Assembly (NCBI GenBank): GCA_002419005.1
Contig: DIFF01000012.1
Span: 500,241-564,240, forward strand
Direction of reading: 5' to 3'
Length of the DNA stretch: 64,000 nt
Source of the DNA: Peptococcaceae bacterium UBA5755
Lineage (GTDB): Bacteria; Bacillota; Dehalobacteriia; UBA4068; UBA5755
The notes under the pieces are model-generated. The model saw nothing but the letters and a program-made list of their open reading frames with translations, had not been told where the DNA came from and searched no databases. Position numbers and translations under genes: made by a program. Below, in pieces: positions 10,694-34,246 of this stretch. Positions within the stretch are counted from its first letter, which is position 1; every line of letters begins with the position of its first letter.

Positions 10694-10727
10694 TTTATAT
10701 TTTCTAGAGGCAGATTTTATACTGCCT
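10694..10727 (+). terminator. rho-independent terminator after the pilin gene
   Basis: The sequence CTAGAGGCAG-N9-CTGCCTCTAG forms a hairpin and is followed by TTTTTTATT. Confidence 0.7.
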
Positions 10728-11862: not shown

Positions 11863-12005
11863 TATGGCTTAGCTGCATTTCATATAGTCTTTACAAGCAA
11901 AAAAAGCTCCGCAAAAGTGGGGCCCTTTTTTGTTTGCTATTAGGTGGTTAAAAACTATTCTTTTGTGTTATAATTATTATTTAGAAATGACAAGGTGGTG
12001 ATGAT

Positions 12006-13988: not shown

Positions 13989-14035
13989 ATAAATTTAGAT
14001 TTGCTGCTAATTTTAAATAAATCAGGAGATTGTTT

Positions 14036-16954
14036 ATGGCTAATGATAAGTTGATTATCGAAGGAGCAAGACAGCACAATTTAAAAAATATTAATGTGAG
14101 TATTCCCCGCGACAAGCTGGTGGTGCTAACTGGTATTTCTGGCAGCGGCAAAAGTTCCCTAGCCTTTGATACCATTTATGCGGAGGGTCAAAGGCGTTAT
14201 GTGGAATCGCTTTCTGCTTATGCCCGGCAGTTTTTGGGGCAGATGGACAAACCCGACGTGGACCATATTGAGGGACTTTCCCCGGCAATTTCTATTGACC
14301 AAAAAACCACCAACAAAAACCCCCGTTCCACGGTAGGGACCATAACCGAGATTTACGATTATTTGCGGCTTTTGTTTGCGAGGGTTGGGCACCCTCATTG
14401 CCCGGTGTGCGGTGAGCCCATCAGCAGCCAAAGTGTAGACCAAATGATTGATGCTCTTTTGCAATATGCCGAGGGGACACGGTTACAGATTTTGGCCCCC
14501 ATTGTGCGGGGCCGCAAAGGTGAATATGTGAAGCTTTTGGCGGATATTAAAAGCCAGGGCTTTTTGCGCATACGTTTGGATGGTGAAATGCGGGACTTGG
14601 ACGAAGAAATTAGTTTGGACAAGCAAAAAAAACACACCATAGAAATTGTGGTTGACAGGTTGGTTATTAGAGAAGGAATTGAAAGCCGGCTGGCCGATTC
14701 TTTGGAGATTGCCTTGGAACATGCCAATGGGCTGGTTAAGGTTTTGGTGCAAGAACCTGCCGCAAACTCAGAACCGCAAGACAATGCCTTGGACGAGCCG
14801 CAAAAAGATAAAAAACAAGAAACCAAGGAGATTTCCTTTAACCAAAATTTTGCCTGCGCCCAATGCGGCATTAGCCTAGAAGAGATAACCCCCCGCTTGT
14901 TTTCTTTTAACAGCCCTTACGGGGCCTGCCCCACCTGCGGTGGTTTAGGTTACACCATGCACATTGATGAAAAACTTTTGATGCCCCACCCCGAAAAAAG
15001 CATAAAAGAAGGCGGCATTATGCAGTTTAATGATGGGGCGCAGGGTTGGTATTACCGCTTTATTGTAGCTTTGGCGGAACGCTATGGTTTTTCTTTGGAA
15101 GTACCGGTAGAGGATTTACCCCGCTGGGCCTTGGATTATATTTTTTACGGCAGCGGTACAGACAAGCTTACTGTTTCCTACGAAAACCAAAGCGGAGACC
15201 AACGAACGATTACCGAAAGCTGGGAGGGTCTGGCCAACAATTATGCCCGCCGCTACAAAGAAACAGCCTCTCCTTGGGTTAGAAATGAGCTGGAGAAACT
15301 GATGGCCATAAACCTTTGCCCAGATTGCCACGGAGCCCGGCTAAAGCCCATTAGCCTTGGGGTAACAATTGCCGATAAAAACATTCATGAGCTGAGCCAG
15401 CTCTCCATTGAAGATCTGCGGAATTTTATAGATACTTTACAACTTTCTGAAAGGGAAACTTTGATTGCCGAACAAATATTAAAACAAATAAATGAACGGC
15501 TGAGTTTCCTTGTTAATGTTGGGTTAGATTATTTAGCCTTGGGCCGCACGGCCGCCTCATTATCCGGCGGCGAAGCTCAACGTATTCGCCTGGCTACCCA
15601 AATTGGCTCACAGCTTACAGGGGTTTTGTATATTTTAGATGAACCGAGTATTGGCCTTCACCAAAAAGACAATGCTCAGCTGATTAACACCTTGCTGCGG
15701 CTTAAGGATTTGGGCAACACGGTGCTGGTGGTGGAGCATGACGAAAATACCATTTTAGCGGCAGATTTTATTGTAGATATTGGCCCCGGTGCCGGAGCCA
15801 AAGGTGGCCACCTGGTGGTGGCCGGCTCAGTAGAAGATGTGAAGGCCTGCAAAAAATCCATCACCGGTCAATATTTGAACGGCAGTAAAAAAATCCTTCT
15901 ACCGCCAAACCGCAGAATAGGTAACGGCGAATATTTGCGGGTTTTTGGGGCCGCTGCCAACAATCTGCAAGACATAGATGTAGCTATTCCGCTTGGTACT
16001 TTTACCTGTGTTACCGGGGTTTCCGGCAGCGGCAAAAGCTCTTTGGTAAATCATGTCATTTACACCAGTTTAGCCCACTTTTTAAACGGAAGCCAGGTAA
16101 AACCGGGCCCCTGCAAAAAGATAGAAGGCCTGGAAAATTTGGAGAAAGTAATAGCTATTGACCAAAGCCCCATTGGCCGCACCCCCCGCTCTAACCCCGC
16201 AACCTACACCGGGGTATTTAACGATATTAGGGAGCTTTTTGCCATGACCCCCGATGCCAAAGCCAAAGGATACAAATCTGGCCGTTTTAGCTTTAATGTT
16301 CGGGGCGGCCGTTGTGAGGCTTGCCAGGGCGACGGGATTATTAAAATTGAAATGCATTTCCTTGCTGATGTATATGTGCCATGCGAAGTATGTCATGGTA
16401 AAAGGTATAACCGGGAAACACTGGAAATTCGCTATAAAGGTAAAAACATTGCCGATGTGTTGGACATGACGGTAGATGAAGCAGTAGAATTTTTTGCCAA
16501 TATCCCAAAAATTTACAGCAAGCTTTTGGTATTGCAGGATGTAGGCTTGGGTTATGTAAAACTTGGCCAATCCGCCACCACTCTTTCCGGCGGTGAGGCG
16601 CAAAGGGTAAAATTGGCTTCTGAGTTGGCCCGCCGCAGCCACGGCAAAACTTTTTACATTTTGGATGAACCAACCACCGGTCTGCACACGGCAGATATTC
16701 ACAAGCTTTTGCATGTATTTGATAGACTTGTGGAAGCCGGCAACACACTTTTGGTTATTGAGCACAATTTGGACGTGATAAAATCAGCCGACTACATTAT
16801 TGACCTGGGGCCAGACGGCGGGAGAAGAGGCGGCCGGGTAATTTGCTGTGGCACCCCAGAGGAGATCGCCGCCCAAAATGTTGGTTACACCAGCCCATTT
16901 GTGCAACAAGTTTTACAAAAATATGGGCAAGTACCCCTTTTTACCCAGAGATAA
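14036..16954 (+). CDS. uvrA: excinuclease ABC subunit A
   Basis: There are two ABC ATPase modules ([12 protein letters not shown] and [11 protein letters not shown]), zinc-finger Cys clusters and LSGGEAQR signatures. An AGGAG RBS precedes ATG 14036. Confidence 0.95.
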
Positions 16955-16966
16955 GGGGGTGAAAAA

Positions 16967-18874
16967 ATGAGTCAAAACTGGCAAGAAAAATTGCAGGAAC
17001 AGCTAGAAAAGCTGCCGGATGAGCCAGGCGTTTATTTGATGTATGACGAGGCGGACGCAATAATTTATGTGGGGAAAGCCAGCTCTTTAAAGCAACGGGT
17101 CCGCTCTTACTTTGTGAGGGGCAACAAAAACACCCCAAAGACTGCCGCCCTGGTCGAAAAGGTGCGGCGGTTGGAAACGGTTGTTTTAAACTCTCCTGTG
17201 GAAGCACTTGTTTTGGAAAGCAACCTAATAAAAAAGCACCATCCCCGCTACAATGTGCGGTTGCGGGACGACAAGCAATACCCTTACCTTATGCTTACTA
17301 TGGCGGAGGATTTTCCCCGTTTGTTGGTAGTAAGACAACCAAGGGCCGATGCTAATTTGTATTTTGGCCCTTATGTTTCTGCCCAAAACATGCACGAGGT
17401 ACAGAATATTATTAGGCAAATTTGGCCTTTGCGAAGCTGCAGCAACAGCCAGTTTGCCAGTTCTAAACGCCCCTGCCTTAATCATGATATTGGGCATTGT
17501 TTGGCCCCTTGCACAGGCGGCATTGACAAAGCTGCTTACAAAGAAATGGCAGAAGAAGTGAGCCTGTTTTTGGAGGGCCGCACCAAAGAGATTGGCCAAA
17601 ACCTAGAAAAAAAGATGAAAGAAGCTTCTGCTGCCTGGCATTTTGAAGAGGCAGCCCGGTACCGGGATCAGTTGGCAGCAGTAAAGTTTGTTCAGCAAAA
17701 AAACCCCATAAACAAAATTAATGCAGGGGATTATGATATAATTGCTCTGGCAAGCCACCAAAAAGATGCCTTGGCCCAGGTTTTTTTTGTGCGGCAGGGT
17801 AAACTGCTGGGCAAAGAACATCTCTTTTTGGTTAATGAGACGGAAGTAAAAGAAGCTGATTTAATGGGTGCTTTTTTGCCACAATATTATGCCCGTCGCC
17901 AACATATTCCTCCTCTTATTTGCCTTTCAGCTCTGCCGGAAAACACTGAAACCATGGCTCTTTTGCTGCAGCAAATGCGTGGCGGCAGCGTAAAGATAAC
18001 TTTGCCACAAAAAGGAACCAAAAAATCCCTTTTGAAACTGGCCATAAAAAATGCCTGCCTGCTTTTATCCCAAAACCTTGAGGCAAATGAAGAACAGCAA
18101 AAAAGGAGGGCTGCCACCCTTTTGGAATTGGTAGAAATTCTTAACTTGCCAAAAACGCCCTATCGCATCGAATGTTTTGATAACAGCCATATTCAAGGAA
18201 CCAACACTGTTTCTGCCATGGTAGTTTTTGAAGGCGGGCAAGCCAAAAAAAGTGATTATCGTCACTTTCGTCTTAAAGGGGACCACCATGGTGATGATTA
18301 TGCCGCCATGCGAGAAGTTTTGGCCCGGCGTTTTGCTAAAGCCGTGGAAAAATCAGGACCAGATGAGAAAACCCCCGCCCAAACCGAGGCAAAAAACCCA
18401 AAGAAGCCAGCCTGGCAAGAGCTGCCTGATCTTCTTTTGGTGGATGGCGGCAAAGGGCAAGTGAATGTGGCGGTGGAAGTTTTGACCATGCTGGATCTTT
18501 TGGCGGCGGTACCCATTGCCGGCCTGGCCGAAACGGAAGAGTATATATATTTGCCGGGCGAAAGGAACCCTATTGTTTTACCGCAAGAAAGCCCGGCTCT
18601 GCAGCTTTTGCAACAGATAAGGGATGAGGCCCACCGCTTTGCCCTGAGCTATCACCAAAAACTACGCGGCAAAAACATGGCTGCATCCAGCTTGGCGGAG
18701 ATCTCCGGCATTGGTAAAAAACGCCAACAGGCCCTTTGGCAACATTTTGGCTCAAAAGAAAAAATGGCTAAAGCCAGCATTGAAGAACTTTCTTTGCTGC
18801 CTGGCATGAACAAAAAAGCAGCCACAGCAGTATATGAAAAACTCCATGATATACACGACAAAACAAAGGAATGA
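16967..18874 (+). CDS. uvrC: excinuclease ABC subunit C
   Basis: The N-terminal GIY-YIG domain is PGVYLMYDEADAIIYVGKA. A UVR domain and a C-terminal HhH follow. The RBS is GGGGGTG. Confidence 0.95.
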   Translation: MSQNWQEKLQEQLEKLPDEPGVYLMYDEADAIIYVGKASSLKQRVRSYFVRGNKNTPKTAALVEKVRRLETVVLNSPVEALVLESNLIKKHHPRYNVRLRDDKQYPYLMLTMAEDFPRLLVVRQPRADANLYFGPYVSAQNMHEVQNIIRQIWPLRSCSNSQFASSKRPCLNHDIGHCLAPCTGGIDKAAYKEMAEEVSLFLEGRTKEIGQNLEKKMKEASAAWHFEEAARYRDQLAAVKFVQQKNPINKINAGDYDIIALASHQKDALAQVFFVRQGKLLGKEHLFLVNETEVKEADLMGAFLPQYYARRQHIPPLICLSALPENTETMALLLQQMRGGSVKITLPQKGTKKSLLKLAIKNACLLLSQNLEANEEQQKRRAATLLELVEILNLPKTPYRIECFDNSHIQGTNTVSAMVVFEGGQAKKSDYRHFRLKGDHHGDDYAAMREVLARRFAKAVEKSGPDEKTPAQTEAKNPKKPAWQELPDLLLVDGGKGQVNVAVEVLTMLDLLAAVPIAGLAETEEYIYLPGERNPIVLPQESPALQLLQQIRDEAHRFALSYHQKLRGKNMAASSLAEISGIGKKRQQALWQHFGSKEKMAKASIEELSLLPGMNKKAATAVYEKLHDIHDKTKE

Positions 18875-18879
18875 AGAAA

Positions 18880-19683
18880 ATGACAGTAAAATTAGTAGCA
18901 ACCGATTTGGATGGCACTATGCTACAAGATAACAAAGTTGATCCAAAAACAAAGGCAATTGTGCAGAAAATGATTAAAAAAGGCGTAGAACTGGTTATTT
19001 CTACCGGACGCATGCATTGTGCTACCCAAATGACCGTGCGTCAGTTGGGTATTAACCCATATATAGTAAGCTACAACGGGGCCATGGTGCATCAGGGACT
19101 TTATGGCAAAGAATTACAAAACATTACTATGGACAAAGATATAGCCAAGAAACTTATTGCAATTGGCATGGAAAATGGTGTTGTAATGCATGTTTATATA
19201 AATGATGTGCTTTATGTGCAAGAGATGACCAATTGGACGGCAAATTATATGAAGCTGTGTGCCGCCCCAACCCGGCTTTTGGAGGATTTAAAGGAAGCAA
19301 TAGACATTTTTGGCGATCCCACTAAGGTACTTTTTATTTCTACCCCGCAAAATTGCGCCAATATGCAAAAAATGCTCCGCCAGAAATTTGCCGGCGAAAT
19401 ATATATTACCAGCTCCGCCCCATATTTTGTAGAGGCCATTAACCCAAATGTACATAAGGGCAAAGGCGTAAAAATTGTTGCTGATCGGCTGGGGATAAAG
19501 CAATCGGAAATTTTGGTGATTGGCGATAATTATAATGATATGGACCTTTTTGAGGCCGGTGATATTAAAATTGCCATGGGTGATGCGGTGGATGCTTTGA
19601 AAGAATCTGCCACCTGGGTTACTGACACTGTAACAAATGATGGCTGGTATAAAGCAATAAGAAAATTTGTTTTTGAAGAATAA
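18880..19683 (+). CDS. Cof-type HAD-IIB family hydrolase
   Basis: The motifs are VATDLDGT and GDNYNDMDLF. The track ATG at 18871 overlaps the uvrC stop, but ATG 18880 has better RBS spacing. Confidence 0.8.
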   Translation: MTVKLVATDLDGTMLQDNKVDPKTKAIVQKMIKKGVELVISTGRMHCATQMTVRQLGINPYIVSYNGAMVHQGLYGKELQNITMDKDIAKKLIAIGMENGVVMHVYINDVLYVQEMTNWTANYMKLCAAPTRLLEDLKEAIDIFGDPTKVLFISTPQNCANMQKMLRQKFAGEIYITSSAPYFVEAINPNVHKGKGVKIVADRLGIKQSEILVIGDNYNDMDLFEAGDIKIAMGDAVDALKESATWVTDTVTNDGWYKAIRKFVFEE

Positions 19684-19716
19684 TAGCAAAACATACCTAC
19701 GAAGGGGGGAAAACAG

Positions 19717-21087
19717 ATGGCAAAAGCAAAATTTGTTTATGTTTGCCAAGAATGTGGTCACACAAGTGTGAAATGGTATGGCCGCTGCCCAAGCTGCGAG
19801 ACCTGGAACAGCTTGGTTATGGAGCCTCTGGAAAGCAGCCCTGAAAAAAAAGTTGGGCAAAATTCTGCCGGGGCTTTGCCCCTACCCATAAACCAGGTTT
19901 CTTTAAGCCAGGTAGACCGCTTGAAGCTTGGCATAAGCGAGCTGGACGGGGTGCTTGGCGGCGGCCTAGTGCCTGGCTCTTTGGTTTTGCTGGGCGGCGA
20001 ACCCGGCATTGGCAAAAGCACTATTTTGCTGCAGGTGAGCCTGGCTTTAGCCAACAACCACGGACCTGTTCTTTATGTTTCCGGTGAGGAATCGGCTCCT
20101 CAGGTGCGACTAAGAGCTGAAAGACTGGGCACCCTTTCGCCAAATTTGTGGCTTTTGGCAGAAACCGACTTGGAAGCTATTTTGACCAAGGCCAAAGAAA
20201 AGGATTTGAAACTGCTGATTTTGGATTCCATTCAGTCCGTTTATCTGCCAGAATTGACTGCAGCCCCAGGCAGCGTTTCTCAGGTGCGGCAGGGCTGTGC
20301 CGCCCTAATGCAATATGCCAAGGAGACTGGTGTGGCGGTTATTTTGGTAGGACATGTAACCAAAGAGGGGAGCCTGGCTGGGCCACGGGTTTTGGAACAT
20401 ATGGTAGACACGGTACTTTATTTTGAAGGACAAAAAAACAATTCTTTTCGGCTTTTGCGGGCGGCAAAGAACCGTTTTGGCTCCACTAACGAAATTGGTA
20501 TTTTTGAGATGCTGGATACCGGGCTTTCGCCCCTAACCGACCCCTCTTTGCTTTTTTTGAGCCAAAGAAACCAAGAAGTGCCCGGTTCTGTTGTGTGCTG
20601 CGTTATGCAGGGTACAAGGCCTGTTTTGGTAGAGGTGCAAGCACTAACCTCCCCTACCACTTTTGGCAACTCCCGCAGGCTTGCAAGCGGCTTGGATTAT
20701 AACCGTTTGCTTTTGATTGTGGCGGTCTTAGAAAAGAAACTGGGGCTTAAGCTTGGCACCCAAGATATTTATGTGAATGTGGCAGGCGGTCTGAAGGTGG
20801 AAGACCCCGCAGCGGATTTGGCAGTGGCAGCAGCCATTGTTTCTAGCTACAAAGATAGAACGGTACCGGCAAACACACTGGCTATGGGGGAAATTGGCCT
20901 TACGGGAGAAGTTAGGCACATTAGCCAACTGGATAGACGCCTAAAAGAAGCTGAAAAGTTTGCTTTTAAAGAAGCGGTGGTGCCACCGGATGCTAAAACC
21001 ACCCAAAAAAGAGCTCCCGATGATCTGATCACTTGGCCCAGCCAATATGTTGATAAAGCTTTGGGGCTTTTGGGACTCTTGCTGTAA
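19717..21087 (+). CDS. radA: DNA repair protein RadA/Sms
   Basis: It has an N-terminal zinc finger CQECGHTSVKWYGRCPSC, Walker A GEPGIGKST and a Lon-like C-terminal domain. Confidence 0.95.
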   Translation: MAKAKFVYVCQECGHTSVKWYGRCPSCETWNSLVMEPLESSPEKKVGQNSAGALPLPINQVSLSQVDRLKLGISELDGVLGGGLVPGSLVLLGGEPGIGKSTILLQVSLALANNHGPVLYVSGEESAPQVRLRAERLGTLSPNLWLLAETDLEAILTKAKEKDLKLLILDSIQSVYLPELTAAPGSVSQVRQGCAALMQYAKETGVAVILVGHVTKEGSLAGPRVLEHMVDTVLYFEGQKNNSFRLLRAAKNRFGSTNEIGIFEMLDTGLSPLTDPSLLFLSQRNQEVPGSVVCCVMQGTRPVLVEVQALTSPTTFGNSRRLASGLDYNRLLLIVAVLEKKLGLKLGTQDIYVNVAGGLKVEDPAADLAVAAAIVSSYKDRTVPANTLAMGEIGLTGEVRHISQLDRRLKEAEKFAFKEAVVPPDAKTTQKRAPDDLITWPSQYVDKALGLLGLLL

Positions 21088-23029: not shown

Positions 23030-24955
23030 TTATAGTTTGTTTTGTTTTTGGATAAAAGCTACAAACTCTTCAGCAGGCATGGGGTTGGCATAGAAAAACC
23101 CTTGGACATAATCTGCTTCCAGCTTGATGACTATTCCTGCCTGGTTGTTGTTCTCTACACCTTCCACCACTATCACTAAACCAAGCCGCCTAAACATTCT
23201 TAAAGTATCTTCAAAAACAATAGAGATATTTTCTTTGCCTATTTCCGGAACCAGAAGACTGCGATCCAGCTTTACGGCAAAAAATGGTAAATTTACTACC
23301 TGAGCAATGTTGGCATAGCCTGTACCAAAATCATCCAAAGCAAAACGAAAACCTTTTTCTATTAGGTCATTCATACATTTAGCAAGAACATTATAAGAGT
23401 CTATAGCAGCAGTTTCTGTGACCTCAAAAATAATGCCGGATGGGTCTACCCCATGTTTTTCTACAATACTCCTCAACCGCTCTGGCAAATGCTGGTACAA
23501 AAAATCGGCTGCTGAAAGATTAATTTGAAGACTTTTTATGCCAAGCTCTTTTTGAGGCTGATATTTTTTTATGAACTGACAGGCTAAATTTATTACTGTT
23601 TCGTCTATCCGCAGGATTAGCCCTTTTTCTTCTGCAATTGGAATGAACTCGGCGGGAGAAATGTCACCCATAACCGGATGAGAAAATCTGAGTAAAGCCT
23701 CCGCAGAAACAATTCGTTTTTCTTTTACCGAATAAATTGGTTGAAAATAAAGCGAATAACCTTTTTGGTTTTCCAATGCTTCCTTTAGGGCAGTTTCTAT
23801 TGCAACGCGCCTTTGAATATTTAACATAAGATGGCTTTTTATCTCTTCTGTGGAACCTAGACCACCACTACCTAAATCGAAAAAGGACATATCTATAAGA
23901 TTTATCACATCTTCCGGCTTTTTAAAATAATCTGTTCTGGGAAAATGACGCACAGTAGCTGAAAGCATGAGCTCCATACCATTCATTTCCCAGGGAATTT
24001 TAAAACCTTCTTCTATTTTAGAAAGCATTTTTTGGTAAGTTGCTTGGTCATAAGTTATGATGACAAAACGTGTGCCAACCATGCGAAAAACCCAGGTGTT
24101 CTCCTTTTCGGAAAACAAAAAATCGCCCACTTTTATCATAACTTGGTTGCCAATGACCATACCAAAAAGGTTGTTGATGCGCCGCATGCCGCCGATATCG
24201 ATGGCAATAAGCTGAAACTGTTTTTTTTCTTCCAGCTTGTCCTTAAGAAAAATTAGCATAGCCTCATAATTAAAAACACCGGTCATAACATCCAACATGT
24301 CTTTGGGGTTTTGTATGGTAAAGTACATTGTAGTGATGGCAAGAGCAATCGCCACACCGGTAAGCAAGTATCTCGGATTATAAAATTGAAACATTATAGC
24401 TATTGCTATAATTATAATAAAAATAAAAATGGTTTTATACTGATTTTCCTGAAGTTTTCTTCTGTATATGTTGATGAAAATAAAAATAAAAGACATGTAA
24501 AAAGCTACAATATAATAAAGATACTTAAACCATGGCCCATGGATATAGTTCATGGATGCGTCAATATAGAAGAAAAGATTAGTTAGGGGGTTTAAAAGCA
24601 ACATGATCTCAAAAACTATGCCCGGCAAAAGCAAAAGCACAATAATAACAGCATTTTTTGCCTTAAAAATCCCCGCCATTAGCATTGCATATATCATAGC
24701 AAGGACGGAGAAAATGAGCTGCAAAGAATAAAAAGCGGCGTTTGTGACCAAATTGACCCAAATAGGCAAAAACGCCGCTTTTTCAATAGTAAAGGCACTA
24801 ATAATATCCAAGGCCAGATCAGCAATCGCACATACCAAAATAAACCCAAATAGCTTATTTGCCATATTAGGGAAAGGTCTTTTTTCAAAAAATTGCTGTG
24901 TTAATATTAAAAGAAAGACCAGGGCGCATATTTCAAATTCTACAACATATTGCAT
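23030..24955 (-). CDS. membrane sensor with a degenerate GGDEF domain and a c-di-GMP phosphodiesterase (EAL) domain
   Basis: 641 aa. The N-terminus has about 8 TM helices. The GGDEF-like domain has a GTRF degenerate motif. The EAL domain carries EALLRF...DDFGTGY. Confidence 0.85.
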   Translation of the reverse strand: MQYVVEFEICALVFLLILTQQFFEKRPFPNMANKLFGFILVCAIADLALDIISAFTIEKAAFLPIWVNLVTNAAFYSLQLIFSVLAMIYAMLMAGIFKAKNAVIIVLLLLPGIVFEIMLLLNPLTNLFFYIDASMNYIHGPWFKYLYYIVAFYMSFIFIFINIYRRKLQENQYKTIFIFIIIIAIAIMFQFYNPRYLLTGVAIALAITTMYFTIQNPKDMLDVMTGVFNYEAMLIFLKDKLEEKKQFQLIAIDIGGMRRINNLFGMVIGNQVMIKVGDFLFSEKENTWVFRMVGTRFVIITYDQATYQKMLSKIEEGFKIPWEMNGMELMLSATVRHFPRTDYFKKPEDVINLIDMSFFDLGSGGLGSTEEIKSHLMLNIQRRVAIETALKEALENQKGYSLYFQPIYSVKEKRIVSAEALLRFSHPVMGDISPAEFIPIAEEKGLILRIDETVINLACQFIKKYQPQKELGIKSLQINLSAADFLYQHLPERLRSIVEKHGVDPSGIIFEVTETAAIDSYNVLAKCMNDLIEKGFRFALDDFGTGYANIAQVVNLPFFAVKLDRSLLVPEIGKENISIVFEDTLRMFRRLGLVIVVEGVENNNQAGIVIKLEADYVQGFFYANPMPAEEFVAFIQKQNKL

Positions 24956-24967
24956 ATCTTCTCCAAT

Positions 24968-25015
24968 ATACTATGTTTATGGTATGGTATGGTATGGTAT
25001 GGTATGGTATGGTAT
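24968..25015. repeat. pentanucleotide tandem repeat (TATGG)9, also readable as (GGTAT)9, in the promoter region of the EAL gene
   Basis: Nine or more perfect 5-bp units lie immediately upstream (20-65 nt) of the EAL gene start codon on the minus strand. A TATAAT hexamer abuts the repeat. Confidence 0.9.
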
Positions 25016-25186: not shown

Positions 25187-25552
25187 CTATAAATCGGCAA
25201 TTATATCATTCAGCAATCTTTCTGCTAAGGACTTAACTAAAACCATCTGATCTTCCGAAATGTTGTTTACATGGATACCGCAAGTTACGACAATTTTTTT
25301 ATTTAAGAATGCAGCAAGTTTTTCGGCAAACAAATTACCAATTTTGTCATCCATGTGGCCCACAAAGTTGTAGGTACTGGTGGTGGCACTGATTTTTGCC
25401 GGATCACTTAAGCTAGGACGTGGCACAGCAATGCTGACACTGCCGATATGGGGCGCATCACCGCCCGAAACAACCAAGCAAAGCTCATCCCCCACAACCA
25501 AAACTTGTGCCTTAAGAGCAAGGCCATTTTCAGTTTTAGTATAGCATTTCAT
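25187..25552 (-). CDS. small conserved protein encoded 3' of ubiX (possible UbiD/UbiX accessory or prFMN-handling protein)
   Basis: 121 aa, with a 4-nt gap to the ubiX stop and on the same strand. It has no Cys zinc-ribbon of the BsdD/VdcD type. The GDAPHIGS motif is present. Confidence 0.45.
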   Translation of the reverse strand: MKCYTKTENGLALKAQVLVVGDELCLVVSGGDAPHIGSVSIAVPRPSLSDPAKISATTSTYNFVGHMDDKIGNLFAEKLAAFLNKKIVVTCGIHVNNISEDQMVLVKSLAERLLNDIIADL

Positions 25553-25556
25553 ATTA

Positions 25557-26135
25557 TCAGTCCCTTGGTTTGATTTGTTCTATCATATCTTCCCATCTTT
25601 GGATCTTCATGTTTAAATTAAACTGATCTAAAACCCGCGCGATGGTATTGTTGATTATGTCCGCTAAATTTTGCGGTTTAGAATAAAAAGCCGGTACCGG
25701 CGGCATGACAACTGCACCAAGCTGGGAAGCTTTTAGCATATTTTCCAGGTAAACAGTGCTCAAAGGCGATTCTCTGGTTAAAAGAACCAACTTTCTTTTT
25801 TCTTTTAAGGCTACGCTTGCTGCCCTAATAATCAAATCATTATCAAAACCATTGGTAATTCCCGACAAGGTTTTCATGCTGCAGGGTGCCACTATCATTC
25901 CATCATTTTTATAAGAACCACTGGAAATAACAGCTGCCATATTATCTTCGTCATAGCAAAAATCGGCCATGGCTTTTATTTCTTCAAGAGAATATCTTGT
26001 TTCATTCGCTATGGTATATTCGCCCCATTTACTAATTATTAAATGGGTTTCGACTCCCAAATTTTTTAATTCTTCTAATAATCTAATGCCATAGATGGCC
26101 CCGGAAGCTCCGGTAATTCCCACAATTATTTTCAA
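25557..26135 (-). CDS. ubiX: flavin prenyltransferase UbiX (prFMN synthase)
   Basis: MKIIVGITGASGAIYGIRLLE...the ORF is collinear with UbiX/Pad1 family flavoproteins. Confidence 0.9.
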   Translation of the reverse strand: MKIIVGITGASGAIYGIRLLEELKNLGVETHLIISKWGEYTIANETRYSLEEIKAMADFCYDEDNMAAVISSGSYKNDGMIVAPCSMKTLSGITNGFDNDLIIRAASVALKEKRKLVLLTRESPLSTVYLENMLKASQLGAVVMPPVPAFYSKPQNLADIINNTIARVLDQFNLNMKIQRWEDMIEQIKPRD

Positions 26136-26261
26136 TTTTTCCCCTCCCGCTATTTGGTGGAAGATGATTTTGTTTAAAAAGCCATACCACTATGAGCGGC
26201 ATTAAATGCCGCTCATAGCAAGTATTTACTATAGGTAATTTTTCCTAATTGTTAAGATAAA

Positions 26262-27263
26262 TTATTTCAGCAGACCTTTTTCTTTCAGATATTTGATAGC
26301 GCCATCATGTAAAGGCATGGAAGTTTGATCCCAAGCTGCCAATGCTTCAGGAGTAAACGCAGCAGTGCCAGCGTGAACGGCTTTCCAGTCTTCGATATGG
26401 GAGTACATAACATCCAAAATTTCATAAGCATCAGCCTCGGAAACAAAAGTATTAGAAACGATAGTGGTTGCTACGCCCAACACAGTGGTGTCGGTATCAA
26501 CTTTGTTGTAAGTGCCAGCCGGAATAGTACTAGTAACGAAGAAAGGCATGGTCTCAATAACTTTTGCAACTGCTTCATCGGTAACGTTGAGCAGCTTGAT
26601 GTTTTGAGACAAGGCAACCTCAGATACGCCGGAAGCGGGGAAAGCAGCAAAGTATACGCCAACGTCAATGGTGCCATCCAAGAGAGCAGTGGTGGTTTCA
26701 GCCATGCTCAGATAGTACATGTCAACATCAGCCACATCTATGCCGTAAGCTGCCAAAACACCAGGAACTGCCAGGGTGGAGATGGAGGAACCAGGAGAAC
26801 CAGCACCAAGTCTTTTGCCTTTAACCTGTTCGATGGAATCAATGCCAGAGTCAGCTCTGGTTACCCAGTGCAGATAAGAATAAGAGCCAACCATCAGGAT
26901 ACGCAGATTGGTTTGAGCACCAGCTTCTACAAATTGCTCTTCACCATGATAAGCATATTTAGCTATATCAGCAAGAACGAAAGACATTTGGCAGGTGTTG
27001 GCATTAACCAATTTAGCATTTTCTACAGAACCAGTGGTTGCTTCTACAGAAGCAGTAGTGTTTTCCATGTTTTCTTCCAAAATTTTGCCCAAGCCCCCAG
27101 CTTGAATGTAGCTAGTACCACCTTGTTGGGAACCGCCGATTGCCAACCGCAGGGTTTCAGTTCTGCCGGCTGGTTCTTCCTCTTTAGTGCAACCAAATGC
27201 AAACAACATTACAAAACATAACATAATAGCACAGAATACCATAAGCTTAGATTTTTTTACCAT
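26262..27263 (-). CDS. TRAP transporter TAXI-family substrate-binding lipoprotein
   Basis: The lipobox is LFAFGC. TAXI signatures are present: LAIGGSQQGGTSY and TGSVENAKLV. Confidence 0.85.
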   Translation of the reverse strand: MVKKSKLMVFCAIMLCFVMLFAFGCTKEEEPAGRTETLRLAIGGSQQGGTSYIQAGGLGKILEENMENTTASVEATTGSVENAKLVNANTCQMSFVLADIAKYAYHGEEQFVEAGAQTNLRILMVGSYSYLHWVTRADSGIDSIEQVKGKRLGAGSPGSSISTLAVPGVLAAYGIDVADVDMYYLSMAETTTALLDGTIDVGVYFAAFPASGVSEVALSQNIKLLNVTDEAVAKVIETMPFFVTSTIPAGTYNKVDTDTTVLGVATTIVSNTFVSEADAYEILDVMYSHIEDWKAVHAGTAAFTPEALAAWDQTSMPLHDGAIKYLKEKGLLK

Positions 27264-27365
27264 TGTTTTCCCTCCTAAATTAATTTAATTTTTTGGATCT
27301 CCACAAATTGGTTTTCCGCTAACCTTTTGCCTCCTTCCCCTCTAAAAAAAATATTGCAATGATTC

Positions 27366-29342
27366 TTATGCCTGTAGATCCGGTTCGGACACCAAACTAG
27401 AACCTTGTTTGTTCTTTTTAGCTATTCGCTTACGAAGGATAAAGATTACTACCAGCACAACTATGCCAATAATGTCGGTATAAAAACCCGGAATAACCAT
27501 CAGCAAGCTACCGGCAAAAATAACAATTCTTATAATAATATTCAATTTGCCATGTAAATATCCTTCGAGGGCTGTTACCATGAAGTACACGCCAACTATT
27601 GCGGTTAGGCAAGACCAAATTACTTGAATTGCAGAACCTTGCATTAAGAGGACCGGGTTATAAACAAAGATGTAGGGAACCAACAAACCGGGAAGAGCCA
27701 TCCTAAATGCTGTATAACCTGTTTTTGTTGGGTCAGAATCGGCAATTGCCGCCGCCGCATAGGCACCCACCGCAACTGGAGGAGTGATGTTTGCATATAC
27801 TGCAAAGTAAAGGATAAAAAGATGAGCAGCTAAAGGATAAACGCCCATTTGAATGAGAGCTGGAGCAACCAAAACAGCCAGTACAATATATGCCGCGGTG
27901 GTGGTTACGCCCATGCCCAAAAGGATACAGCAGAGCATGGTTAAAATAAGCAGAAGCAGCAGATTGCCGCCGGAAAGAGTAATCAAAAAAGAGGAAAGTT
28001 TGAGGCCCAGGCCTGTAAGGGAAAAAACACCAACAATTACACCAGCACAAGCACAGGCCATAGCTACATCAACAAGACCCCTGGCCCCTGCTACCAAAAC
28101 CATTAGGTATTTTTTTACACTGAGTCTGGTAGTTTTACGAAATAAAGAAATAATAAAGCATGCTATTGCGGCATATAAACCGGCTTTGATAGCACTAGTT
28201 TTAAAAACGCCCAGCATCAGTAATAAAAGAATAATGGGAATCAAAAATGCCCCCCCATCTTTTAAGACAACAAGAGAAGATTCCAAATTTTTTCTGCTGG
28301 TACCCAGCAAACCAAGTTTTTGAGCACGGATGTCAGCTGTTATAAAAAGTGCCGTGTAGTACAAAATAGCCGGGATGACTGCTGCCATAGCAACAGACCA
28401 ATAGGAGATGCCTAGCATTTCGCCGATGATGAAGGCTGCAGCACCCATAACAGGCGGCATAATCATGCCGCCTGCGGAAGCAACTGCTTCAACAGCCCCG
28501 GCAAATTGAGGGGTAAAACCTTCTCTTTTCATCATAGGAATGGTAAGAGAACCTGCGGTTGCCACGTTGGCAATAACACTACCAGAAATGGTGCCGAACA
28601 AACCGCTTACAACAACACCAATTTTGGCAGAGGAACCTCTCACATTGCCCAAAAGAGAATTGGCAATGCGAAAAATAAAGTCACCGCCGCCGGTTCTTTG
28701 CAGGATTACGCCGAAGATAACGAAAACTGCAACATAGGTTGCGGATACGCCCAAAGGAGTACCGAAAATACCTTCGGTAGAAAGATACATGGCGTTGACA
28801 ATACGAGAAAGACTATAGCCACCGTGCCCCACGCGCCCAGGAATAAATTGGCCAAGAAAAGCATAAAGCAAGAATATCCCGGCAATGAGCGGCATGGGAA
28901 AACCCATGACCCTTCTCGTGCCTTCAAGTACTGCAAGAGTCATTATGCAACCAAATACCACGTCTATAGTATATAGGGTACCAGCTCGAAAGGCTATGTC
29001 AAAATAGTTGGTTGCAAGATAAATACAGGCTGATACGGCTGCAGCAAAGAAGATCACGTTAAAGATCATTCTTGCTATGTTTAACGGTGTTCCTGCTTTA
29101 TCACCTTTTAATTTAAAAGGATTAAGCAAAAACACCAATGCAATCGCAAAACCCAGGTGGATAGACCTTTGTATTACAGCCGGCAACGGCACAGTAGCTG
29201 CCGTATAAAGTTGAAATACGGAAAACCCAAAAGCAATTACGATTATGGCATATTTAATAAATTTGCTAAGCTGTGTTTCCTGTTTTTTAGCCTCAAGAAC
29301 TGCACTGCCGTCTTTGTTTACTACAGTTTCTTTTTTTGTCAT
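27366..29342 (-). CDS. TRAP transporter fused permease (TAXI-associated DctQM-like)
   Basis: 658 aa with about 16 TM helices, typical of TAXI-TRAP fused permeases. Confidence 0.85.
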   Translation of the reverse strand: MTKKETVVNKDGSAVLEAKKQETQLSKFIKYAIIVIAFGFSVFQLYTAATVPLPAVIQRSIHLGFAIALVFLLNPFKLKGDKAGTPLNIARMIFNVIFFAAAVSACIYLATNYFDIAFRAGTLYTIDVVFGCIMTLAVLEGTRRVMGFPMPLIAGIFLLYAFLGQFIPGRVGHGGYSLSRIVNAMYLSTEGIFGTPLGVSATYVAVFVIFGVILQRTGGGDFIFRIANSLLGNVRGSSAKIGVVVSGLFGTISGSVIANVATAGSLTIPMMKREGFTPQFAGAVEAVASAGGMIMPPVMGAAAFIIGEMLGISYWSVAMAAVIPAILYYTALFITADIRAQKLGLLGTSRKNLESSLVVLKDGGAFLIPIILLLLMLGVFKTSAIKAGLYAAIACFIISLFRKTTRLSVKKYLMVLVAGARGLVDVAMACACAGVIVGVFSLTGLGLKLSSFLITLSGGNLLLLLILTMLCCILLGMGVTTTAAYIVLAVLVAPALIQMGVYPLAAHLFILYFAVYANITPPVAVGAYAAAAIADSDPTKTGYTAFRMALPGLLVPYIFVYNPVLLMQGSAIQVIWSCLTAIVGVYFMVTALEGYLHGKLNIIIRIVIFAGSLLMVIPGFYTDIIGIVVLVVIFILRKRIAKKNKQGSSLVSEPDLQA

Positions 29343-29366
29343 TTTTACACTCCTTTCCCTTAAATT

Positions 29367-30764
29367 TTATAAATTCAGCATTTTGCTCACTTTGTCGCTA
29401 ACCTCTTGAGGAACTTTAACAACCTTTGGAAATTCGGTATGGAAAGGTTTTGTAGCATCGATGATGACCCTGGTGGTCAACTTGCCTTTGCCGGCTCTGT
29501 TGTCTTCAGCATAAGAGCTGGGATCAAGTTGGGCACCAAAGGTGTAGGGGATCATAGAGATGTCGATATCACCTTGTACGCGAGTTGCCACTGCCCAAAG
29601 CACTTGTTCATTATCATAGATGTTGATGTCTTCATCAAAAACAAAAACGTGCTTCAAGTCATAGTTCACACCAAGAGCAGCTAAAGCTGCAAACTTGCCA
29701 TAACCTTCTACGGTTTTTTTGATGGACATGTAAAGATGATAGAAGGACGCACCAGAAGGCGGCAGATGGAGCGCTTTGAGAGTAGGAATAATCTCTTTAA
29801 CTTTTTTGTACATATGGGCTTCACGGCCTAAAACGCCGGCCAAGGTATGCTCTCTGAAGCTTGGGCGAATGTCATGATAGATGGGGTCTTTTCTCATAGT
29901 GATGGCAGTTACATGCAAAACAGCAACTTCTTTTTCAGGGCCATAATAGCCAGCATATTCGCCAAAAGGACCATCTTGAGTCATTTCACCAGGATCCAAA
30001 TAACCTTCGATAACAATCTCGGCATAAGCGGGAACATTGATATTAACGGTTTCAGCTTTAACAACCTGCAAAGGCTCGTTTAAAAGACCGCCCATGGTCT
30101 CAAGTTCATTATGTTCATCCAATTTACCACGCGAAGAAGAACCAAGGACTACTGCGGGGTGGTGGCCGATAAAGATGGCAACTTCCATACGTTTTTTCAG
30201 CTCGCAATGACGTCTATAAATGTATGCGGCGTGGGAAGCAGGGTTAACCATCCAGCTTAATGTATTTTTATTTTTAACTTCCATGCGATAGATACCAACA
30301 TTGGGCACACCGCTGTCGGGGTCAATGCAAATCAGGTTGCCGCTGGAAATGTATCTGCCGGAGTCTAGCTCATTATGAATACTGATAGGAACTTGATCTA
30401 AATCAATTTTGTCACCAGTAAAAATTTGTGCTTTCACAGGGGCATCTGCTTTGGCAATTTCTTGCATGGGCAGAGGATTAGATTCACGTTTAATGTAGGT
30501 TTGCAGAATTTCTTCATGCTCATTGCCGTCAACATCCAAAGCATGACCCAAAAGTTCATAGCTTGCAAAAAGGCTGGAAACCATTGGCATGGGAGATTTT
30601 TCTACGTTTTTATAGAAAACTACGGGGTATTTACCTTTAGCAGCTAAAAGCTCTTGGACAGCACCTATCTCATAGTCGCGATCCAATTTTTCTTCTACTT
30701 CAAAATATTTTTCCGGATATTGGGTTTTGATTTTGTTTAAAAAAGTGCGCAGATCTTTTTGCAT
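29367..30764 (-). CDS. UbiD-family (prFMN-dependent) reversible decarboxylase
   Basis: 465 aa. UbiD-family motifs are present from the N-terminus through the C-terminal region. The first gene of the operon. Confidence 0.9.
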   Translation of the reverse strand: MQKDLRTFLNKIKTQYPEKYFEVEEKLDRDYEIGAVQELLAAKGKYPVVFYKNVEKSPMPMVSSLFASYELLGHALDVDGNEHEEILQTYIKRESNPLPMQEIAKADAPVKAQIFTGDKIDLDQVPISIHNELDSGRYISSGNLICIDPDSGVPNVGIYRMEVKNKNTLSWMVNPASHAAYIYRRHCELKKRMEVAIFIGHHPAVVLGSSSRGKLDEHNELETMGGLLNEPLQVVKAETVNINVPAYAEIVIEGYLDPGEMTQDGPFGEYAGYYGPEKEVAVLHVTAITMRKDPIYHDIRPSFREHTLAGVLGREAHMYKKVKEIIPTLKALHLPPSGASFYHLYMSIKKTVEGYGKFAALAALGVNYDLKHVFVFDEDINIYDNEQVLWAVATRVQGDIDISMIPYTFGAQLDPSSYAEDNRAGKGKLTTRVIIDATKPFHTEFPKVVKVPQEVSDKVSKMLNL

Positions 30765-30940
30765 GTTATTCCTCCTTAAAATAAATTACTTACTTAAAAG
30801 TAATTAAAAACATATTTAAATTTTTTTTGCCCCCCTCTTTGATTTAGTTTACTTTCTTTTAAAAACCTGGCCCAGGTAAAATAACTTTATTTAACGTTTT
30901 TAACAAACAAAAATATCCTTGCACACAAGAATTTTTTTGG

Positions 30941-32101
30941 CTATTTTAAGCCAATTTCTTTAAGATATTTGATTGCTCCGGCATGAAGCGGCATAATATA
31001 TTCGCCAAAATTAGCTAGCCTTTCCGGAGTGAATTCGGCTGTGCCGGGGTGAATATTCATCCAGTCTTTTTGGTGGGTAAACATGGTTTTAACGATTTGA
31101 TATATAGTGTCCTCTGAAACCTGGTCGTTGGTTAAAATACAGGTTCTGACAGCCACCACGGGCACATCTTCTTCATTGCTTTTATATGTTCCGCCTTTGA
31201 TGACCCTGTTATAAAGGATGGGCATATCTTCGATGATCTTTTGCATATATTTTGGCCCGATGGAAATTAGTTTTGCTTTTTCTGCCTGAGCAAGCTCTGT
31301 TACGCCCCCGGCCGGAATGCCAGCCAGGTATATGCCCACATCTACCGTGCCATTAGACAAAGCTTCCGTGGTTTCTTTCATATTCAAAAAATATTCGTCA
31401 ATATCATCATAGCTCATGTCATAAGCCTTTAAAATACCAGGCACAGCTACCATGGAGGTGTAGGAACCGGAAGAACCGACCCCCACTCTTTTGCCTTTTA
31501 AATCTCCTATGGAATTGATGCCAACATCTGTTCTAGCCACAACATGCACGAAGGATTTTTGGCCAACCATCATCATCCGCAAGCTGGTAAGTTTTCTATC
31601 AAATGGGTTTTGGCCAAGATAGGCATACTTAGCAATATCAGCAAGCACAAAACCCATTTGGCATCTGTTGCTGGCCACCAGCTTGGCATTTTCTACCGAG
31701 CCGGAGGTAGTTTCAACCGAGGCACTTGCGTTGTCCATATATTGCTCGATGATCTTCCGCATGCCGCGGGCATGGATATAGCTTGTGCCGCCTTCCTGAG
31801 AACCAGCAATTTTTTGGGCTTTGGTATATTCCGCTATCAGTATTCTTGCCGCATCAAAATCAACTTTTTCATTTGCAGCAAGCCTTTTAATTAAAGCAAT
31901 GTATGGCTCGTTTACCGCATCTTCGGTAATTTGGATTTTTTGAATCAATTTGTCTAAACGCAACCTGACTGTTGGATAGGTCACACCATATTGGGTTGCA
32001 ACCTCCTTTAGGGAACCGGATGCCATGATAAAATTTTTAATAAAGGACATATCTTTATCATCTAAATTTACCATCCAATCCGGAATTATTTCTACAGCCA
32101 T
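30941..32101 (-). CDS. cytoplasmic fusion protein: N-terminal DUF2089-like HTH plus a TAXI-family solute-binding domain (putative ligand-sensing transcriptional regulator)
   Basis: 386 aa with no signal peptide and no TM. The N-terminus has LKEVATQYGVTYPTVRLRLDKLIQKI (HTH). Residues ~100-386 are roughly 50% identical to the adjacent TAXI SBP (GGTSYI, SVETTSGSVENAKLV, CQMGFVLADIAKYAY). Confidence 0.6.
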   Translation of the reverse strand: MAVEIIPDWMVNLDDKDMSFIKNFIMASGSLKEVATQYGVTYPTVRLRLDKLIQKIQITEDAVNEPYIALIKRLAANEKVDFDAARILIAEYTKAQKIAGSQEGGTSYIHARGMRKIIEQYMDNASASVETTSGSVENAKLVASNRCQMGFVLADIAKYAYLGQNPFDRKLTSLRMMMVGQKSFVHVVARTDVGINSIGDLKGKRVGVGSSGSYTSMVAVPGILKAYDMSYDDIDEYFLNMKETTEALSNGTVDVGIYLAGIPAGGVTELAQAEKAKLISIGPKYMQKIIEDMPILYNRVIKGGTYKSNEEDVPVVAVRTCILTNDQVSEDTIYQIVKTMFTHQKDWMNIHPGTAEFTPERLANFGEYIMPLHAGAIKYLKEIGLK

Positions 32102-32520
32102 TTTATTGCCTCCTTTAATATTATTAATTATAGCCTTTAATTATGTTAAAGTCAATATTAAATTTTATTTTAAAATTATTAAAATTTTTGTATTATTTTG
32201 TTTTACAAGCTAAAAGCTTATATTAGTTGTATTTTTTAACAATAAAATTTTTTATTTTAATCAGTTTTTGTAAAATTTTAAACACTTTTGTTGAATATGC
32301 CCTAATTTTTATTACAAAATTCCAGCATAATATTTATATTATCCCAAAAAAAATATAAATATTATTATCACGTTTTTAAATATTTTATAACACCCCCTCC
32401 TTATAAATATTATTCAATAAAGCCACAAAGGCTGTAGATTCCTTTCACCGGAAATCGCCAGCCTTTGTAGTTTTCTGACCAGAAAAGTAAATTTATTCAC
32501 ATATTTGCATAAGCTCTGAT

Positions 32521-33094: not shown

Positions 33095-34246
33095 TCAAAA
33101 AGATGCCTCAAATGACTTATTATGTTTTTTCCGTTTTTTATCTTCGTACATCAATCTGTCTACTTGTTTAAAAAGCTCCTCTGCTTTCATGTGGGCATGA
33201 TAATCATATACAGCATAGCCCATACTAAAGAAAAGCTTATAAGGCTGAAAATAAGATTTGTTGTATTCATCAACACAGCTATTTATTCTGTCAACGGCAG
33301 CCTCCAGTTTGGTTTTGTTTGATATATCCAGAATAAAACAAAATTCGTCACCACCAATGCGGGCAATAAAATCATTTGCCCGCATGCATTTTTTAAACAG
33401 TTCGGCAGCAGTTTTAAGTGCCCCGTCCCCCATTTCGTGACCCAAAGTATCATTAATATTTTTAAAGTTATCAAAGTCCAACATAATAAGTGAAAAGGTT
33501 TTATTTTCGGTGCTTGCATTAATTTTTTCTCTTAATTTTGCTTCAAACTTCTCACGGTTGCTAATTTCTGTCAGATAATCGGTGTATATACTATAGTTCT
33601 GAATATTCAAATGTATAATAAGCAAAGACAAAACAATGATGTTTAATACAAATGAAAACCCGTAGATAGAAAGCTGCAGTACTGTACCTATACATGGAGG
33701 TATGCTAAAAAATATTAATGAATAAAAATGTTTTTTTTCGATTTTGTTTTGATTTTTAAAAACCAAAACAAAGGATGCAAGAAGCAAGGCAATTACCAGG
33801 ATTGCCGAAAATAAAAAATGCGGCCCTCTATGATAAATATTATTAGAATCTATATAATATATCCATCCGTTAAACTGAGATAATATAATTAGACCAGAAT
33901 TTATTATATTAAGGATACACAACGGATAAAACAAACGCTTAGTTTTCTCCTCATCATTATAAACTTGGTAATGAACATATGAAAACCAAAATGATGGCAG
34001 AATGGGATTTACAATAAAAAGAAATAAATTTGCCACATGATTAATAACAGGATAAATTGTATTAGGGTTACCGTCAAACCTGCCTAATATATCCAAAACC
34101 AATGCCAAAATAGTAAGTTTTACAAGATTTATATAAAGCTTATGCTGAAAAAAATTATTTTTGGCACCCTTTTGAGAATGGATAAGAATGACTATCAACA
34201 ATACTATGGAATAACTATTGATAACTATGTTATACGCTAAATTCAT
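33095..34246 (-). CDS. membrane diguanylate cyclase (GGDEF)
   Basis: An N-terminal domain with ~6 TM helices is followed by a C-terminal GGDEF domain with an intact RIGGDEF motif. Confidence 0.85.
   Translation of the reverse strand: MNLAYNIVINSYSIVLLIVILIHSQKGAKNNFFQHKLYINLVKLTILALVLDILGRFDGNPNTIYPVINHVANLFLFIVNPILPSFWFSYVHYQVYNDEEKTKRLFYPLCILNIINSGLIILSQFNGWIYYIDSNNIYHRGPHFLFSAILVIALLLASFVLVFKNQNKIEKKHFYSLIFFSIPPCIGTVLQLSIYGFSFVLNIIVLSLLIIHLNIQNYSIYTDYLTEISNREKFEAKLREKINASTENKTFSLIMLDFDNFKNINDTLGHEMGDGALKTAAELFKKCMRANDFIARIGGDEFCFILDISNKTKLEAAVDRINSCVDEYNKSYFQPYKLFFSMGYAVYDYHAHMKAEELFKQVDRLMYEDKKRKKHNKSFEASF

Follow-up and report, generated by a model that had tools for sequence, protein, structure and literature searches.

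A UbiD decarboxylase of the HmfF branch set beside a TAXI-TRAP importer, an LpdD homologue and a candidate HTH-TAXI regulator in a Peptococcaceae bacterium

The joining of an aromatic-acid importer to a UbiD decarboxylase and a UbiX flavin prenyltransferase is not new. TAXI-TRAP transport is said, by a paper that credits Sanz et al. 2020, to be linked to UbiD/UbiX in anaerobic o-phthalate degradation. In the anaerobic o-phthalate clusters of Aromatoleum, Azoarcus and Thauera, a TAXI-TRAP transporter is accompanied by a CoA transferase, the UbiD-like phthaloyl-CoA decarboxylase (PCD) and UbiX (PMC13040137), a precedent absent from an earlier interpretation of the DNA described here, made from its letters alone (the sequence-only reading). 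UbiD enzymes dependent on prenylated FMN (prFMN) are also paired with UbiX in the HmfF/HmfG systems of Cupriavidus basilensis and Pelotomaculum thermopropionicum, and in Lactobacillus plantarum the gallate decarboxylase LpdC and the flavin prenyltransferase LpdB work with LpdD. The latter, described in 2024, binds reduced prFMN specifically and helps to activate apo-UbiD enzymes, and is said to lie only rarely beside UbiD genes (PMC10865409). Here we describe a minus-strand locus of Peptococcaceae bacterium UBA5755 (contig DIFF01000012.1, positions 500,241 to 564,240; this 64,000-nucleotide stretch is the window, and positions below refer to it). Its genes suggest a self-contained module that would import and decarboxylate an extracellular (hetero)aromatic carboxylic acid, a reading to which we assign a probability of roughly 0.6. 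The six genes are:

29367-30764, minus strand: ubiD, a UbiD-family prFMN-dependent decarboxylase of 465 residues, HmfF branch, 'H-R-F' subclade
27366-29342, minus strand: fused TAXI-TRAP permease of 658 residues (TIGR02123, 1e-196), with ribosome-binding site AAGGAG, after a 24-nt gap from ubiD
26262-27263, minus strand: TAXI solute-binding lipoprotein (solute-binding protein, SBP) of 333 residues (TIGR02122, 7e-69), with a lipobox
25557-26135, minus strand: UbiX flavin prenyltransferase of 192 residues (TIGR00421, 5e-75), with a TTG start preceded by GGGAGGGG
25187-25552, minus strand: homologue of the LpdD family of prFMNH2-binding chaperones, 121 residues (PF21758, 1e-31)
30941-32101, minus strand: HTH-TAXI protein of 386 residues, a candidate one-component regulator with a DUF2089 helix-turn-helix (HTH) and a TAXI domain

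In the mechanism that we propose, the tethered TAXI lipoprotein would capture the acid outside the cell and the fused permease would import it at the expense of an ion gradient. The HmfF-branch UbiD would then remove the ring carboxyl as CO2 using prFMN. UbiX would make prFMNH2, allowing the operon to supply its own cofactor, and the LpdD homologue would hold this oxygen-labile reduced cofactor and hand it to apo-UbiD. Expression is probably controlled by the cytoplasmic HTH-TAXI fusion, a duplicate of the SBP that would sense the same or a closely related ligand inside the cell. The reaction direction, the substrate class, the fate of the product, and the DNA binding and ligand sensing of the fusion are features of this scheme that we infer.

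The five-gene minus-strand operon of the sequence-only reading (UbiD, permease, TAXI lipoprotein, UbiX and a 121-residue protein) is borne out by the list of open reading frames, which returns the same coordinates and exactly the same intergenic gaps of 24, 102, 126 and 4 nt. Its family assignments were also right for all five genes, each of which scores above a curated cut-off, and at the level of families the predicted functions are near certain. UbiD scores 317.5 bits against TIGR00148 (cut-off 244.85) and contains all three of PF20695, PF01977 and PF20696; the permease reaches 655 bits against TIGR02123 (cut-off 321) and the SBP 232 bits against TIGR02122 (cut-off 84). UbiX scores 251 bits against TIGR00421 (cut-off 108.9) and 246 against NF004685 (cut-off 188). 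Judged by their anatomy, ubiD, permease and SBP genes appear to be co-transcribed, because the first gap is only 24 nt, no terminator was found in the gaps ahead of the permease and SBP genes (24 and 102 nt), and the transporter genes lie between ubiD and ubiX-lpdD. The permease and SBP genes have ribosome-binding sites (AAGGAG and AGGAGG).

The locus shares its prFMN-dependent UbiD and UbiX with the HmfF/HmfG systems, as well as the His, the first Arg and the catalytic residues of the decarboxylase, but here a TAXI-TRAP transporter, LpdD and the HTH-TAXI fusion accompany UbiD in place of hmf catabolic genes, and Arg331 is replaced by Phe. As in the o-phthalate clusters, a TAXI-TRAP importer is linked to UbiD/UbiX for an aromatic acid; unlike them, the locus has no CoA-transferase gene in it or next to it, and LpdD and the fusion regulator are additional. 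The UbiD has just a distant relationship to PCD (78 bits), which makes a free acid the likely substrate in preference to a CoA thioester. The L. plantarum LpdB/LpdC/LpdD system has the same decarboxylase, flavin prenyltransferase and LpdD components, with conserved metal ligands, yet its UbiD belongs to another branch, and in our locus all of the genes stand together with a transporter and a regulator. Three features set the locus apart: LpdD encoded together with an HmfF-branch enzyme, the H-R-F signature and, most of all, an HTH-TAXI fusion that appears to be unique.

The sequence-only reading had held that its argument for substrate coupling would fail if the UbiD clustered with the UbiD of ubiquinone biosynthesis. 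This is not so: the enzyme scores 154 bits against the ubiquinone UbiD equivalog PRK10922 (cut-off 788) and 202 bits against the menaquinone MqnL model TIGR03701 (cut-off 496), and it groups with the HmfF branch. It likewise falls below the VdcC model NF041204 (270 bits against a cut-off of 650) and the phenylphosphate-carboxylase-type models (114-142 bits against cut-offs of 469-565). By far the best solved relative is HmfF of P. thermopropionicum, a 2,5-furandicarboxylate (FDCA) decarboxylase (PtHmfF, 6H6V; 275 bits, 8e-81), to which it is ~40% identical over 389 residues. Next among solved structures are the indole-3-carboxylate decarboxylase AnInD (173 bits) and VdcC/AroY (7AE4, 5O3M; ~147 bits), and then E. 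coli UbiD (136), Fdc1 (~90) and PCD, the weakest UbiD match listed. The catalytic residues R160, D264, E269 and L413 align with R152, E254, E259 and L403 of PtHmfF; among the 120 closest proteins the first three never vary, and 115 have Leu at the position of L413.

The substrate site distinguishes this enzyme from HmfF. The HmfF triad is H296-R304-R331 (PtHmfF numbering), reportedly as set out by Payne et al. 2019. In the window's enzyme H306 and R314 occupy the first two of these positions, and F341 replaces R331, leaving the HmfF triad incomplete. His296/297 of HmfF is reported to be key to furan-type specificity (PMC7976604). This His is kept in 119 of the 120 closest proteins, while the other two triad positions vary, with more than 20 combinations, and because of this pattern the clade probably covers many substrates that share a feature recognized by the His. 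The nearest database protein is 57% identical. In a neighbour-joining tree the enzyme belongs to a 10-sequence subclade that stands apart from the H-R-R enzymes; every member whose triad was checked has H-R-F, as do other proteins just outside the subclade.

We compared gene neighbourhoods in 80 representative genomes with related UbiDs. In seven of the 80 (L008, L009, L013, L016, L019, L071 and L078) the UbiD adjoins a TAXI permease, whether or not a TAXI SBP can be recognized as well; the seven belong to Thermodesulfobacteriota, Betaproteobacteria, Lachnospiraceae, Dethiobacter and Moorellales. The L016 cluster, from a Lachnospiraceae metagenome-assembled genome (MAG) of goat omasum, spans 4677-19337 and encodes an AstE/AspA-like protein, TAXI SBP, TAXI permease, an octopine-dehydrogenase-like protein and two UbiDs, then xanthine-dehydrogenase-type molybdenum (Mo) and FAD subunits, a UbiX (60% identical), an LpdD-family protein, RidA and an MFS transporter. 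The cluster has the look of an anaerobic pathway for a heteroaromatic acid, one in which LpdD also serves. In L078, a Moorellales MAG, genes for CoA transferases and a sigma-54 activator are followed by UbiD, TAXI SBP, permease and UbiX; the UbiDs of L078 and L071 have the full H-R-R triad. A second TAXI-like open reading frame lies at 5286-6185 of L078, beside the CoA transferases, the sigma-54 activator and the UbiD(H-R-R)-TAXI-UbiX genes. The Pfam model matches it only from position 30, and it may lack a signal peptide and be another cytoplasmic TAXI paralogue.

Other H-R-F members adjoin TctC-type (TTT) or branched-chain-type ABC importers, not TAXI. Their usual neighbours are three-subunit, xanthine-dehydrogenase-type Mo hydroxylases, RidA, an AurF-like protein and GntR regulators, with occasional family-III CoA transferases, isochorismatase and cyclase, and the closest relatives outside the H-R-F group have the same neighbourhood pattern. 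Around the H-R-F UbiDs of L093, L095, L088 and L094, a Mo hydroxylase, RidA, an unannotated 302-residue protein, an AurF-like protein and a TctC or ABC SBP recur, a neighbourhood that suggests an undescribed aerobic pathway for the same acid. Uptake and decarboxylation are quite likely to be functionally coupled, because one UbiD clade adjoins three unrelated classes of binding-protein-dependent importer (TAXI, TTT and ABC). The sequence-only reading had already proposed this coupling, which now gains support both from the recurrent importer linkage in relatives and from the transporter genes inside the operon. The Mo hydroxylases and RidA near relatives hint at heteroaromatic, possibly N-heteroaromatic, acids. 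We consider a heteroaromatic acid moderately likely as the substrate class, and the acid is possibly N-heteroaromatic or a dicarboxylate. Dipicolinate and other pyridine-dicarboxylates were considered as isosteres of FDCA, given the Mo-hydroxylase and RidA neighbours of H-R-F relatives; none of the 15 top-ranked papers of a literature search connects them with UbiD, and the idea stays speculative.

The transporter has every feature by which a TAXI-TRAP system is recognized: a TAXI SBP, a single fused membrane component, and an extracytoplasmic location of the SBP, as predicted from its lipoprotein signal. The SBP N-terminus, MVKKSKLMVFCAIMLCFVMLFAFGC, fits such a signal and ends in FAFGC. Few TAXI substrates are known, namely glutamate/glutamine, 2-oxoglutarate and o-phthalate. 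We mapped the pocket of the glutamate-specific Vibrio cholerae TAXI protein VcGluP (8S4J; residues from PMC11574862) onto the SBP. The amino-group ligands Q93 and E125 of VcGluP correspond to Leu97 and Ser129, and pocket residues Y45 and M201 to Ser51 and Phe205; the Y, Q and E are retained in more distant TAXI homologues. With Leu and Ser at the amino-group positions, an amino acid is an unlikely ligand and a less polar carboxylate is plausible. The SBP is 23-33% identical to the SBPs at H-R-R loci, and close relatives of its subfamily are limited to the regulator domain, a single fragment and P0131. P0131 belongs to the nearest TAXI system elsewhere; its permease is 56% identical, and its neighbours are a thiamine-pyrophosphate-dependent enzyme, a molybdopterin oxidoreductase, a CoA ligase and beta-oxidation-type genes. 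Electrogenic precursor/product exchange as a means of energy conservation was set aside by reasoning that a binding-protein-dependent symporter is not an exchanger. The 298-residue plus-strand open reading frame at 26325-27221, which lies within the SBP gene in antisense, was taken to be a shadow frame of no significance.

The 121-residue protein at the end of the operon, which the sequence-only reading had left unnamed, is by its family match an LpdD homologue, with a predicted role as prFMNH2 chaperone. It scores 109 bits against PF21758 (cut-off 27) and matches the LpdD structure 8P4W at 4e-10. The metal and probable cofactor-phosphate site of LpdD, H35/H61/D63, aligns with H35/H66/D68 in this protein.

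Directly upstream, 176 nt before ubiD and on the same strand, lies a gene absent from the sequence-only reading. In its product a DUF2089 HTH occupies residues 13-58 and a SHOCT-like helical segment residues ~66-96, and residues 98-384 form a complete TAXI SBP fold; the Pfam matches are to PF09862 (5e-17; 61.7 bits against 33.4) and PF16868 (1e-66). The HTH is weakly similar to sigma-70 region 4, and no signal peptide was found in the protein, giving it the layout of a one-component regulator: a DNA-binding-type HTH and a ligand-binding-type domain in one polypeptide predicted to be cytoplasmic. The best full-length database match to its TAXI domain is the operon's own SBP, at 49-53% identity (the value varies with the alignment); of 13 pocket positions the two share 8 exactly, and two more are conservative. 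In the AlphaFold model, mean pLDDT is 84.8 (~90 for the TAXI domain, ~80 for the HTH). The modelled C-domain superposes on closed, glutamate-bound TAXI SBPs with TM-scores of 0.87-0.89, normalized to target length, and a root-mean-square deviation of ~2 A; AioX and ArrX appear among its distant structural neighbours in Foldseek.

Residues 1-97 of the fusion match a family whose members are mostly stand-alone proteins of ~100-145 residues (55-72% identity), and one relative carries this HTH module joined to a GyrI-like effector-binding domain. Because of these stand-alone relatives and this second fusion, the data fit a view of the DUF2089 module as a DNA-binding output part that could be coupled to different sensors. 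Single-sequence and profile searches of 5.8 billion protein clusters turned up the two domains together only in the fusion's own two-member cluster, although the retrieval was word-based and capped and could miss very divergent fusions. In the profile search this cluster scored 534 bits, and the next matches, at no more than 405 bits, were plain SBPs of ~320 residues. Two strain variants carry an uninterrupted fusion, and the substitutions number only 2. Two further candidates were rejected: a short TAXI fragment (L092/P0130; 57-60% identical to the sensor domain) is a signal-bearing SBP split by a frameshift, and the apparent fusion of DUF2089 to an unknown 240-residue domain in P0190 has a nonsense-like C-terminus and is probably a gene-calling artefact.

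Transcription factors of the LacI/GalR and LysR families are built on periplasmic-binding-protein folds, and AioX and ArrX are SBPs recruited for signalling. The HTH-TAXI protein resembles all of these in coupling a binding-protein fold, as ligand sensor, to gene control, and differs in that a recent paralogue (~50% identical) of the cognate TAXI SBP is fused to a DUF2089 HTH. A regulatory role for the fusion is plausible, at about even odds. Somewhat more tentative is a larger proposal: that this is the first one-component transcription factor to sense through a cytoplasmic duplicate of its transporter's TAXI SBP, forming a matched sensor/importer pair for a heteroaromatic acid new to such systems, and that the H-R-F UbiD represents a new specificity of the HmfF branch that depends on LpdD.

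Candidate transcription signals within the locus are as follows:

32127-32155, minus strand: promoter-like site TTGACT-17-TATAAT (11/12), ~25 nt upstream of the regulator start; a consensus match only, with its function presumed
30908-30939, minus strand: weak A-tract/hairpin/U-tract directly 3' of the regulator stop codon, tentatively a leaky terminator
30784-30805, minus strand: perfect 8-bp inverted repeat AATTACTT-N6-AAGTAATT just 5' of the ribosome-binding site of ubiD, a candidate operator
26228-26255, minus strand: promoter-like site just upstream of the stem-loop at 26187-26221
26187-26221, minus strand: strong stem-loop after the SBP gene, with 16 pairs by scan, a perfect 14-bp core and a 3-nt loop
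25091-25130, minus strand: terminator-like hairpin GGAAGCA...TGCTTCC followed by the T-tract TTTTATTATT, after lpdD; the likely end of the operon

The 126-nt spacer between the SBP gene and ubiX folds with a minimum free energy of -40 kcal/mol (z = -6.1; 0 of 200 shuffles were as stable). The U-run is not immediately adjacent to the hairpin at 26187-26221, which may attenuate transcription or stabilize the mRNA rather than bring about full termination; ubiX-lpdD may then be expressed at a different level, or partly from the promoter-like site of their own. The hairpin sequence is not a dispersed repeat in the window. The spacer between the regulator and ubiD folds no better than its shuffles (z-score not significant), and no riboswitch or leader was found in the locus with Rfam.

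Several observations weigh against the proposed module or parts of it. Transfer of the HmfF substrate to the window's UbiD would be unsafe, since Phe stands in for the second Arg and the clade is highly variable at positions 304 and 331. The window holds no downstream catabolic or pathway genes. Transcription of ubiX-lpdD could be uncoupled from that of the preceding genes by the hairpin that follows the SBP gene. Concerning the regulator, no sigma-70-like promoter was found in the spacer between its gene and ubiD, and the candidate operator lies in an AT-rich region where such a repeat could arise by chance. Three pocket positions differ between SBP and fusion (S127/Q181, S160/Y214 and I161/T215), and their pocket identity of 62% is only modestly above the overall ~50%. 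The junction at residues 96-104 is disordered in the model, with low confidence that includes the first strand of the TAXI fold, and we found no experimentally shown function for DUF2089 in the literature.

Alternative readings of the decarboxylase begin with its closest characterized and solved relative. Were the enzyme a true HmfF orthologue, the operon would import FDCA and convert it to 2-furoate for furan catabolism encoded elsewhere in the genome. FDCA is a dicarboxylate and would suit a TAXI system, many clade members are labelled 'FDCA decarboxylase 1' by JGI, the equivalents of His296 and Arg304 are present, and two H-R-R loci of anaerobes (L071 and L078) are also TAXI-linked. The modest identity to PtHmfF, the change of Arg331 to Phe341 and the separation of the H-R-F subclade from the H-R-R enzymes make this unlikely, as do the low identity of the SBP to those at H-R-R loci and the absence from the window of furoyl-CoA synthetase, dehydrogenase and hydrolase genes. 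A system for hydroxyarylic acids (gallate, protocatechuate, 4-hydroxybenzoate or vanillate), performing an LpdBCD-like detoxification with excretion of the phenol, would use the same parts, namely a UbiD (C), UbiX (B), LpdD (D), transporter and regulator; LpdD was defined in that system, and the operon here stands alone, with no catabolic genes downstream. The enzyme's similarity points elsewhere, however, with HmfF at 275 bits against ~147 for VdcC/AroY and a VdcC-model score far under its cut-off, and the VdcD-type zinc-ribbon subunit is absent; we regard such a system as improbable, slightly more so than FDCA import. Far less probable still is a UbiD that runs as a carboxylase to activate an unsubstituted aromatic hydrocarbon or heterocycle within the hydrocarbon-degrading community, or that serves as a quinone-biosynthesis decarboxylase. 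The DNA does come from a hydrocarbon metagenome, UbiD enzymes can work in both directions, and furoate is carboxylated by HmfF when CO2 is high; yet a coupled binding-protein-dependent importer argues for an incoming acid, no ATP-dependent or CoA-ligase step that could pull carboxylation lies adjacent, and similarity to the phenylphosphate-carboxylase type is low, with the UbiD and MqnL equivalogs far out of reach.

Import and decarboxylation by the operon would also be compatible with an HTH-TAXI protein that is not its ligand-sensing regulator. The fusion could be a recent, lineage-restricted product with no role, could buffer ligand or could control unrelated genes, leaving the operon to another signal. 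Its architecture was found in this lineage only, its junction is poorly modelled, a weak terminator-like element follows its gene, DUF2089 is uncharacterized, and three pocket residues differ from the SBP. Set against this, the fusion has stayed intact in both strain variants, its closest paralogue is the SBP of the adjacent transporter, and its confidently modelled TAXI domain superposes on closed, ligand-bound SBPs; it also has a strong promoter-like site of its own, and the same HTH module is fused elsewhere to a known effector-binding domain. We judge this possibility unlikely, though a little less so than any of the alternatives for the decarboxylase.

UbiDs of the HmfF type attract practical interest as a route from CO2 to FDCA and other heteroaromatic acids, and are oxygen-sensitive and hard to activate. 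An operon that packages such an enzyme with UbiX and LpdD provides a ready-made expression set, and a test of whether LpdD-type chaperones serve UbiD branches other than that of LpdC. With so few TAXI substrates known, an SBP lacking the amino-group ligands and its soluble paralogue offer two easily purified proteins with which to find a new ligand. If the fusion is a working regulator, it would mean that a transporter binding protein was very recently co-opted as a sensor inside the cell, and would give the DUF2089 family a testable function and perhaps a scaffold for biosensors.

The window belongs to an anaerobe of a hydrocarbon-degrading community; its source is a hydrocarbon metagenome (SRR636559, PRJNA183510), and the identical locus is present in three assemblies. 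A second large contig carries a strain variant, ~99% identical, in which all six genes are intact with 2-3 substitutions each. The genes flanking the locus are uvrBAC, a radA-like gene, ychF, feoB, genes for cyclic di-GMP (c-di-GMP) enzymes and pilus genes. Two membrane-anchored c-di-GMP enzymes bracket the locus on the minus strand, a GGDEF-EAL protein (23030-24955) and a 7TM-GGDEF protein (33095-34246); no operon link to them was established. At 24978-25015, 23-60 nt upstream of the GGDEF-EAL start codon, lies a perfect pentanucleotide tandem repeat, TATGG on the plus strand, in 7.6 copies. It could be a slipped-strand, phase-variable element of the promoter or 5' untranslated region of the GGDEF-EAL gene. 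Further off, the plus-strand block at 12006-21087, which carries uvrB-uvrA-uvrC followed by a HAD hydrolase and a RadA/Sms-like gene, has a GC content of 0.45-0.47 against 0.33-0.40 in its flanks; it contains no rRNA and is a housekeeping block, not an island.

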